The translations under genes and the position numbers were made by a program. Positions 2,107 through 8,650 of a DNA stretch of 32,912 bases are shown in pieces. The stretch is from Candidatus Bathyarchaeia archaeon (GTDB taxonomy: Archaea > Thermoproteota > Bathyarchaeia > 40CM-2-53-6). How positions within the stretch are numbered: position 1 is the stretch's first letter; every line of letters begins with the position of its first letter. The stretch is from contig JBEKSC010000029.1 in NCBI GenBank assembly GCA_049517415.1, positions 1-32,912 on the forward strand, read 5' to 3'. Below the pieces are notes generated by a model that ran no database searches, was not told the DNA's origin, and worked only from the letters and a program-made list of their open reading frames with translations.

Positions 2107-2424
2107 TTAGTTGTGGAACTCTTTCATAACTAGGCTCATAACATCCGTGGCGGCAGCATGCGCAACCTGCTCGGAGCTAGCTTTCCGAACTATCATTCGC
2201 CCATCCCTTCTAAGCGTGATTTCCTGCCCTGCCCTGTTCTTCAGGATAACGAAATGAGGTGTCCACATCATCACTTCGTGCTTATGGATTGGCTGACCCT
2301 TCATCCCCTCAATATCGACCGCTAGGGGCTTCCTTGGAATAGCTTCAAAGGAAAGATGATCCGAACACAACTTGAAAAACAACGGTGACAAATTTCCGTG
2401 AGAATCAGTCACCCAGATCACCAA
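2107..2424 (-). CDS. Small protein homologous to the C-terminal domain of the neighbouring E1-like enzyme
   Basis: Manual alignment: LCSDHLSFEAIPRKPLAVDIE...VMMWTP...GQEITLRRDGRMIVR vs LCGSDTANVNPEKPLSLDLE...VLLATP...GHEISLFSKGRMLIK. Confidence 0.75.
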   Translation of the reverse strand: MVIWVTDSHGNLSPLFFKLCSDHLSFEAIPRKPLAVDIEGMKGQPIHKHEVMMWTPHFVILKNRAGQEITLRRDGRMIVRKASSEQVAHAAATDVMSLVMKEFHN

Positions 2425-2462: not shown

Positions 2463-2470
2463 TTTATTAG
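2463..2470 (+). promoter_or_regulatory. Putative TATA box of the tRNA-Cys gene
   Basis: TTTATTAG lies about 26-33 nt upstream of a pyrimidine-purine step at T2495/G2496. Confidence 0.45.
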
Positions 2471-2515
2471 AGCTATGTGCTCCAACGATTCTTTTGCCGG
2501 GGAGAATGCCGGGGT

Positions 2516-2548
2516 TGGTCTTTGGCTCTATAGCCTATGGCCACCGAA
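2516..2548 (+). other. tRNA intron at position 8/9 (33 nt)
   Basis: BHB: outer pairs G1-C11 and C2-G10, bulge AA|G, central helix CGGG:ACCG (3 of 4 paired), bulge GU|U, inner helix GGUC:GGCC. Confidence 0.75.
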
Positions 2549-2577
2549 GGCCGAACGGTCCAGGCGGCGGGCTGCAG

Positions 2578-2596
2578 TAGACAATAGCTTGCCGCA
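2578..2596 (+). other. tRNA intron at canonical position 37/38 (19 nt)
   Basis: Anticodon stem GCGGG:CCCGC, central helix CUGC:GCCG (one U.C mismatch), bulges AG|U and CA|A. Confidence 0.85.
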
Positions 2597-2607
2597 ACCC
2601 GCAGTAT

Positions 2608-2627
2608 AGAAAGCGAAGGTCGCTGAG
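2608..2627 (+). other. tRNA intron at position 48/49 (20 nt)
   Basis: BHB: outer helix AACCCG:UGGGUU, bulge AG|G, central helix CAGU:GCUG, bulge AU|A, inner GA:UC. Confidence 0.8.
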
Positions 2628-2763
2628 GTGGGTTCAATTCCCATCCCCGGCTCCAAGTTGTTTACGGTGCTTATCGAGCTTCGGGTAGGGACTTGTCGAA
2701 GCTTTCCGCGGAAATGCTGCTAACTGCTGTCAGGATGTTTGGCGCCACGCATTCCTCTGAACG

Positions 2764-8572: not shown

Positions 8573-8650
8573 TGGCGGGCGGGGAGGGATTCGAACCCCC
8601 GACCTCAGGCTCCGGAGGCCTGTGCCCTATCCAGGCTAGGCTACCCGCCC
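8573..8650 (-). tRNA. tRNA-Arg(CCG), intronless, encoded CCA
   Basis: Reverse complement GGGCGGG TA GCCT AGCCTGGAT AGGGC A CAGGC CT CCG GA GCCTG AGGTC GGGGG TTCGAAT CCCTC CCCGCCC G CCA. Confidence 0.95.

Follow-up and report, generated by a model that had tools for sequence, protein, structure and literature searches.

A three-intron tRNA-Cys gene of Bathyarchaeia and an upstream copy of its 5′ acceptor strand that is likely to serve as a decoy in splicing

How can an intron be excised from between nucleotides 8 and 9 of a tRNA when its splice motif needs six bases of a 7-bp all-GC acceptor stem? This real folding problem is posed by the tRNA-Cys(GCA) gene at positions 2508-2655 of the window, by which we mean the whole stretch of Bathyarchaeia DNA analyzed here (32,912 nt). 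The gene carries three inserts, of 33 nt at 8/9, 19 nt at 37/38 and 20 nt at 48/49, and is preceded by a short repeat of its own 5′ end. The locus is laid out as follows.

2463..2470, plus strand: TATA-like box (inferred promoter), identified with a hand-made TATA motif and starting 33 nt before the leader copy.
2496..2502, plus strand: leader copy of tRNA nucleotides 1-7 (GCCGGGG), predicted to act on the 3′ acceptor strand as a decoy, from the sequence, co-occurrence with the 8/9 intron and the precursor model.
2503..2507, plus strand: spacer separating the gene from the leader copy; its length varies from 4 to 15 nt in relatives.
2508..2515, plus strand: exon 1, acceptor 5′ strand and U8, invariant in 84/84 loci with an 8/9 intron.
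2516..2548, plus strand: intron 8/9, 33 nt, relaxed bulge-helix-bulge (BHB) motif (3/4 central pairs, invariant G6.A), absent from 41/75 distinct orthologous loci.
2549..2577, plus strand: exon 2, nucleotides 9-37, comprising the D arm and the GCA anticodon (2574-2576); the genome has a single match to the exon-2 pattern.
2578..2596, plus strand: intron 37/38, 19 nt, relaxed BHB (U33.C), the 3′ part of which can also form 10 bp with exon nucleotides 24-33.
2597..2607, plus strand: exon 3, nucleotides 38-48, in which 2598-2602 are common to the 37/38 and 48/49 motifs.
2608..2627, plus strand: intron 48/49, 20 nt, strict hBHBh′ with 4/4 central pairs.
2628..2655, plus strand: exon 4, T arm, 3′ acceptor strand (2645-2651), U73 (2652) and encoded CCA, from the sequence and ARAGORN.

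Excision of the inserts removes 72 of 148 nt and leaves 76 nt; ARAGORN folds these into a tRNA-Cys(GCA) whose acceptor stem has 7/7 pairs, with U73 and an encoded CCA. These lengths agree with the initial annotation, made from the letters alone, which had derived an exact 76-nt Cys cloverleaf in this way. Such a call is weak proof, as 125 of 3,000 random triple excisions of the same lengths were also called tRNA, and comparison with orthologues was therefore needed to place the junctions. Searching 41 genomes from the same order at the DNA level yielded 30 tRNA-Cys loci, and a degenerate exon-2 pattern run against GTDB genomes added 71, mostly from genomes titled Candidatus Bathyarchaeia or Bathyarchaeota; several of the latter match same-genus loci without a difference, in keeping with a host in Bathyarchaeia. 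After removal from these 101 of one locus with an N in exon 2, three lacking the 3′ end and 22 duplicates, 75 distinct loci remained, including that of the window. All three inserts are present in 32 of them, whereas two lack only the 48/49 insert, seven lack only the 8/9 insert, 16 have only the 37/38 insert and 15 have none; the three scored as having only a 48/49 insert are mis-parsed 37/38 introns. In the 41 loci without the 8/9 insert, U8 runs directly into G9. Since the exons are near-invariant among relatives while the inserts vary in length and sequence, the junctions at 8/9, 37/38 and 48/49 can be read off from the loci in which one or more of the inserts are missing, and removal of the inserts gives a canonical tRNA matching the intron-less orthologues. 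A genome-wide profile parse returned the same three junctions, though it is not fully independent, as intron-less Cys genes supplied four of the 15 tRNAs on which the profile was trained. Two loci from genomes titled as bacteria, L077 and L097, are identical over the printed stretch to the Bathyarchaeia loci L014 and L019, which suggests that they lie on mis-binned contigs.

The initial annotation had warned that standard scanners may miss the gene, and both ARAGORN with default settings and Rfam do miss it in its unspliced form. In relaxed mode ARAGORN labels 2508-2655 as tRNA-Ala(cgc), and excision of 2574-2592 indeed yields a tidy CGC loop, so that the locus might be read as a tRNA-Ala(CGC) with one insert or as some other decayed or mis-read gene. 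That excision has only 2/4 central pairs and no intron helix, the acceptor stem and U73 agree with intron-less Cys genes, the exons stay near-invariant across genera while the introns vary, and the genome has an Ala(CGC) gene elsewhere, while we could find no further Cys gene in it. We give this reading almost no probability, and the orthologues exclude it. A separate intact tRNA-Cys elsewhere had been named beforehand as part of the evidence that would count against the assignment; none that is credible was found across the assembly (59 contigs, rated 100% complete), either with the exon-2 pattern or in a relaxed ARAGORN scan, where the other Cys call, on contig C2, is poorly paired, has 45% GC, is marked "possible pseudogene" and is not a credible tRNA. 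Other gene architectures were considered and rejected. A split tRNA does not fit four exons that lie in order within 148 nt with a leader matching an exon strand and no separate halves, nor does a permuted tRNA fit colinear exons with an upstream element that copies the 5′ strand; group I or II self-splicing introns require a core of hundreds of bases compared with inserts of 19-33 nt, and Rfam has no match there. Judged from sequence comparison, the locus is thus a real three-intron tRNA-Cys of the archaeal BHB-intron kind, with an intron at an unusual junction.

Each of the three junctions lies in a BHB-type motif, strict or relaxed. The motif at 48/49, with 4/4 central pairs and both outer helices, is the only strict one, while the centers at 8/9 and 37/38 have 3/4 pairs, with a G6.A and a U33.C mismatch, respectively. 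A strict motif at every junction is not needed for membership in the archaeal BHB-intron family, which in the text available to us includes relaxed motifs. Since chance often produces motifs of the relaxed class, as a preprint on Asgard tRNA introns cautions in its main text, the relaxed motifs at 8/9 and 37/38 count mainly through their conservation. In each of the 27 distinct 8/9 introns the motif has its outer pairs, a 3/4 center and the first two pairs of the intron helix, of which the second (h′2) changes on both sides (G-C in 18, A-U in 8, G-U in 1). Two-sided changes are also seen in the first intron-helix pair (h′1) at 48/49 (G-C in 23 and C-G in 14 of 41 distinct inserts), where the center is 4/4 in 38 of the 41 inserts scored and the remaining three are mis-parsed 37/38 introns. 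The 37/38 center is more variable, with 4/4 pairs in 16, 3/4 in 25 and 2/4 in 5 of 46 distinct introns. The G6.A mismatch (2513/2543) in the central helix at 8/9 is invariant in 84/84 loci; other 8/9 introns of the same genome, unlike that of Cys, have 4/4 centers. Within this genome the three Cys introns have no match beyond chance that would indicate intron transposition.

The genome also encodes candidate processing enzymes. It has two EndA genes, one of which, on contig C10, specifies a 190-aa protein whose best structure matches are crenarchaeal α subunits (Aeropyrum pernix, E 7.5e-39) and the other, on contig C2, a 187-aa protein that resembles β subunits. In the alignment, Tyr127, His135 and Lys166 of the α-like protein fall on conserved catalytic positions, which we take to be the EndA catalytic triad. 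The α-like protein also keeps the lysine of the Crenarchaea-specific loop, as its K43 aligns with A. pernix K44, a residue required there for broad specificity (PMC3241643, in the text available). An RtcB gene and an archaeal RNase P RNA are present as well. The sequence and structure matches hence predict that the host makes a broad-specificity (αβ)2 EndA and an RNA ligase. That a relaxed-specificity endonuclease is at work, as had been supposed, is supported by the intron-less orthologues, the conserved motif geometry, the two-sided helix changes and the α/β EndA with its loop lysine.

Three-intron tRNAs as such are already known. In Thermoproteales, pre-tRNA-Glu(UUC) of Pyrobaculum calidifontis and P. 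islandicum's pre-tRNA-Pro(UGG) have three introns (PMC4390854, PMC4090602, PMC4033280), the available text of these papers giving three as the maximum per gene and 3/4 as the extreme position. Like those described there, the Cys gene combines one canonical with two noncanonical short BHB introns and uses relaxed motifs, and its host has a two-subunit EndA with the Crenarchaea-specific loop. It differs in that the host belongs to Bathyarchaeia, in that 8/9 and 48/49 fall outside the partial list of positions given in that text (20/21 to 59/60 "etc.", and 3/4), and in having a leader copy, which the same text does not mention. Asgard genomes, a different lineage, are described in the preprint as carrying comparable tRNA intron loads; its main text contains neither "leader" nor "Bathyarch", while its supplements and Supplementary Data 4 of PMC11291895 may list 8/9. 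A full-text literature search, with the primary catalogues and relevant supplements outside its scope, returned no 8/9 intron, no Bathyarchaeia tRNA introns and no leader copy of an acceptor strand. An 8/9 intron with a leader copy was thus not met in the literature searched, and its novelty is not established.

The motifs draw on one another's bases and on those of the mature tRNA. Bases 2598-2602 are required by both the 37/38 and the 48/49 motif, and the 8/9 motif takes up 2508-2513 and 2550-2551, so the competition between folds that the initial annotation had described is real. Its corollary, sequential splicing with refolding between steps, likewise follows from motifs using the same bases; the predicted costs of the three motifs (5.9-7.3 kcal/mol) are too close to fix an order. 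Removal of the 37/38 intron last would be in line with the strict motif at 48/49 and with tRNA-Ile(UAU) of Cyanidioschyzon merolae, from which three BHB introns are removed in order, 37/38 last, as followed by RT-PCR (PMC3728597, in the text available). That precedent is a eukaryotic alga in which each motif folds independently, whereas in the Bathyarchaeia gene two motifs draw on the same bases and the acceptor strand is required by one. The fold predicted for the precursor pairs nucleotides 38-43 toward the T arm and ties nucleotides 24-33 to the 37/38 intron, and among these loci, which are kin, the latter helix is strong in 26 of 39 with a 48/49 intron versus 1 of 18 without.

The initial account was incomplete in two respects: it did not say how the 7-bp GC acceptor stem is opened, and it overlooked the leader copy. 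Positions 2496-2502 repeat tRNA bases 1-7 exactly, 5 nt before G1; the chance of an exact 7-mer within that upstream span is about 0.001. All 34 distinct loci with an 8/9 intron have such a copy, which forms 7/7 pairs with the 3′ strand in 32 and 6/7 in the other two, where the gene's own acceptor stem is likewise 6/7. Of the 41 loci without the intron, none reaches 7/7 and one reaches 6/7; in one of the 41, L083, the parse picked the wrong 3′ strand, and no copy is visible upstream. We extended the comparison to metagenomes, where 80 loci were listed of at least 120; 10 incomplete loci and 6 duplicates were dropped, leaving 50 with and 14 without the 8/9 intron. Among these listed matches, the copy is present in 50/50 new loci with the intron (46 at 7/7, 4 at 6/7) and in 0/14 without it at 7/7. 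The two sets together, including the 50 and 14 loci among the metagenome matches listed, give 84/84 with the intron and 0/55 without it, figures that show conservation and not independent origins, because the loci are kin and share one intron end (ACC/TGAN). The 84 Cys introns at 8/9 probably descend from a single gain, as far as their common end tells.

On one alternative reading the introns are genuine, whereas the copy is a scar without function, left by the duplication through which the 8/9 intron arrived and retained only by common ancestry, with the acceptor opening by breathing or co-transcriptionally. Besides the apparent homology of all 84 introns, the upstream unit in L022 and L035 looks like exon 1 followed by a degenerate intron that ends in CCGAG, and in L206, the 5′ part of a tRNA-Cys, most of exon 1 and the 8/9 intron are freshly repeated in tandem, by either a recent duplication or an assembly artefact. 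Moreover, the 8/9 motif could fold during transcription before the 3′ strand exists, and one 8/9 gene of the same genome, a second Leu gene (C1:983), manages without a clear copy (5/7). Against this, the spacer ranges over 4-15 nt and the flanks diverge among relatives while the seven bases of the copy stay nearly fixed. The copy is exact in 80/84 loci and deviates in L029, L134, L141 and L142, twice where nucleotide 66 is A and no pair is possible and once to a wobble, so changes either keep the pairing or sit where pairing cannot occur; the gene's own strand deviates in 0/84. In addition, seven different genes hold copies of their own, different strands (see below). Duplication explains the origin of the copy well but not its conservation, and we consider it improbable that the copy is no more than a remnant. 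In the fold predicted for the precursor, the spacer itself (2503-2507) is paired to the T arm, and within the genus its sequence is mostly N-R-A-A-Y.

The position of the promoter bears on where the transcript starts. In 32 of the 34 loci with an 8/9 intron, a hand-made TATA motif begins 30-34 nt upstream of the copy; measured to G1, the distance ranges from 41 to 53 nt. In intron-less loci, a wider list of TATA motifs falls 30-35 nt before G1 in 18/41. The spacing is thus nearly constant to the copy and variable to G1, which probably places the leader copy at the start of the transcript. A scan for bacterial promoters and terminators, which does not cover archaeal ones, found nothing.

That spacing would also suit a reading in which the upstream copy is the true first exon and a fourth, 12-nt intron at 7/8 is cut via a bulge-helix-loop on the self-complementary CCGG, leaving U8 as a one-base exon: the box then stands as far from the copy as it does from G1 in the 18/41 intron-less loci. 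The register gives 4/4 central pairs in 34/34 loci and, before removal of the 8/9 intron, a two-pair outer helix (G-U plus Y-G) in 31/34. Four central pairs are, however, automatic from two copies of a palindrome, and four of the seven genes with copies have no register that gives them. The reading would further require a base upstream of the likely start as well as the one-base exon, and the copy is what varies (U3 in L142; A7 opposite C66 in L141), not the gene strand. We regard a fourth intron as quite unlikely, more so than the scar.

We return to the leader copy as a decoy for the 3′ acceptor strand, which folding models allow to be described in terms of energy. In the precursor model (ViennaRNA), the copy of the window pairs with 2645-2651 at P about 1.0, and across the intron-bearing loci the leader takes the 3′ strand with a median P of 0.998, the true strand being freed. 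With the gene's own leader, the 8/9 core is predicted to cost a median of 6.7 instead of 14.9 kcal/mol (6.9 instead of 13.5 in the window), which brings it to the level of the two remaining motifs (7.3 and 5.9). The cost falls by more than 5 kcal/mol with the own leader in 29/34 loci, with leaders of intron-less relatives in 0/34 and with the spacer alone in 2/34. Under stricter constraints, shuffled leaders also lower it by more than 5 in 12/34; since shuffles rich in G can still bind the C run, they do not control well, and the comparison was made with natural leaders. In 34/34 loci the pairs of the 8/9 core stay at P of at most 0.09 even when the leader is present, so the 8/9 BHB is not the main predicted fold. 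The same models keep the decoy paired in the unconstrained spliced RNA (P 1.0), and with the arms fixed the true acceptor stem is ahead of the decoy by only 0.9 kcal/mol. Strand exchange is, by these calculations, feasible but would rely on tertiary contacts and on RNase P.

The other tRNA genes of the same genome offer a comparison across different acceptor sequences. A profile scan permitting introns anywhere was used, the best 52 hits were traced back and eight that were not intact were dropped, leaving 44 usable genes; some automatic anticodon labels were wrong, and the first intron of Leu(CAG) was set to 8/9 by hand. With tRNA-Asp, which has a 3′ intron, set apart, eight genes with an early first intron (3/4, 8/9 or 10/11) stand against 35 others. 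Seven of the eight carry a leader copy of their own acceptor strand, matching the 3′ strand at 7/7 in Gly, Cys, Glu, Phe, Asn and Trp and at 6/7 in Leu(CAG); the exception is the Leu gene at C1:983. The copies of Phe and Gly each differ from the gene at one base and keep the pair as G-U. None of the 35 other genes reaches 7/7; the best value among them is 6/7, attained by seven, mostly with the help of G-U pairs. Two genes outside these counts, initiator Met and Leu(TAG), have later first introns and no leader copy by eye.

Several of these genes are unusual in their own right. The tRNA-Gly(CCC) gene (C37:13446) has its intron at 3/4 and its leader copy 19 nt upstream, and tRNA-Trp (C24:5195) parses with five introns. 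In tRNA-Asp (C2:32482-32587, minus strand) the insert lies in the 3′ acceptor strand and the 3′ strand of the T stem recurs in the trailer, which may, to go by its sequence, be a mirror-image decoy. The tRNA-Arg(CCG) gene at 8576-8650 of the window (minus strand) is the sole intron-free gene among the 44 parsed, and partial Leu-like sequences without an intact parse at C16:42053 and C2:102153 are possibly remnants of attachment sites.

Beside tRNA-Cys in the window lie a ThiF/E1-like gene (377-1411; matches in 19/29 related loci), a ThiI PP-loop gene without a THUMP match (1408-2103; 17/29) and a 105-aa orphan (2107-2424, minus strand; 16/29). ThiI enzymes thiolate U8, and U8 is the base at the 8/9 junction of the neighboring tRNA-Cys. 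Downstream of the tRNA, two 38-nt direct repeats lie 69 nt apart (2756-2862), each with an imperfect palindrome of ~29 nt, and a partial third copy lies at 2934-2949; they are possibly protein-binding or recombination sites.

Sequence comparison and folding models together make it likely, in our judgment, that the three inserts are BHB introns handled by EndA and RtcB and that the leader copy pairs with the 3′ acceptor strand, freeing bases 1-8 for the 8/9 motif. Transcription would begin at or just before the copy, which would then take 2645-2651 and so also stop the partner of the 8-nt first exon from trapping that exon. The 48/49 and 8/9 introns would be cut before that at 37/38. After splicing, the true strand would regain the acceptor stem with the help of tertiary contacts, and removal of the roughly 12-nt leader by RNase P would make the swap irreversible; because it is this step that would fix the swap, 8/9 splicing would have to precede final 5′ maturation. 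As in the split and permuted tRNAs of Nanoarchaeum equitans and Caldivirga maquilingensis, sequence outside the mature tRNA would steer precursor folding for EndA, but in those systems, in the text available, the leader supplies one arm of the BHB and is itself cleaved by EndA (PMC4033280, PMC4390854). The Cys leader copy, by comparison, mimics an exon strand, lies outside the motif and in cis, and would be removed by RNase P.

With slightly less assurance, we think it probable that archaeal tRNA genes with an intron motif that consumes the 5′ acceptor strand have repeatedly gained such a decoy, a cis RNA chaperone at the start of the transcript that would open positions 3/4 to 10/11 to introns, with splicing before RNase P via strand exchange. 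The tRNA-Cys gene is a good substrate on which to test this, being short and having natural intron-less orthologues and natural variants with differing copies. Because default scanners miss such genes, Bathyarchaeia genomes appear to lack tRNA-Cys. The leader copy bears on which tRNA positions accept introns and how these are gained, a matter left open in the main text of the Asgard preprint. If the proposal is true, the sequence of a tRNA 5′ leader would matter for splicing and for having it take place ahead of RNase P cleavage.
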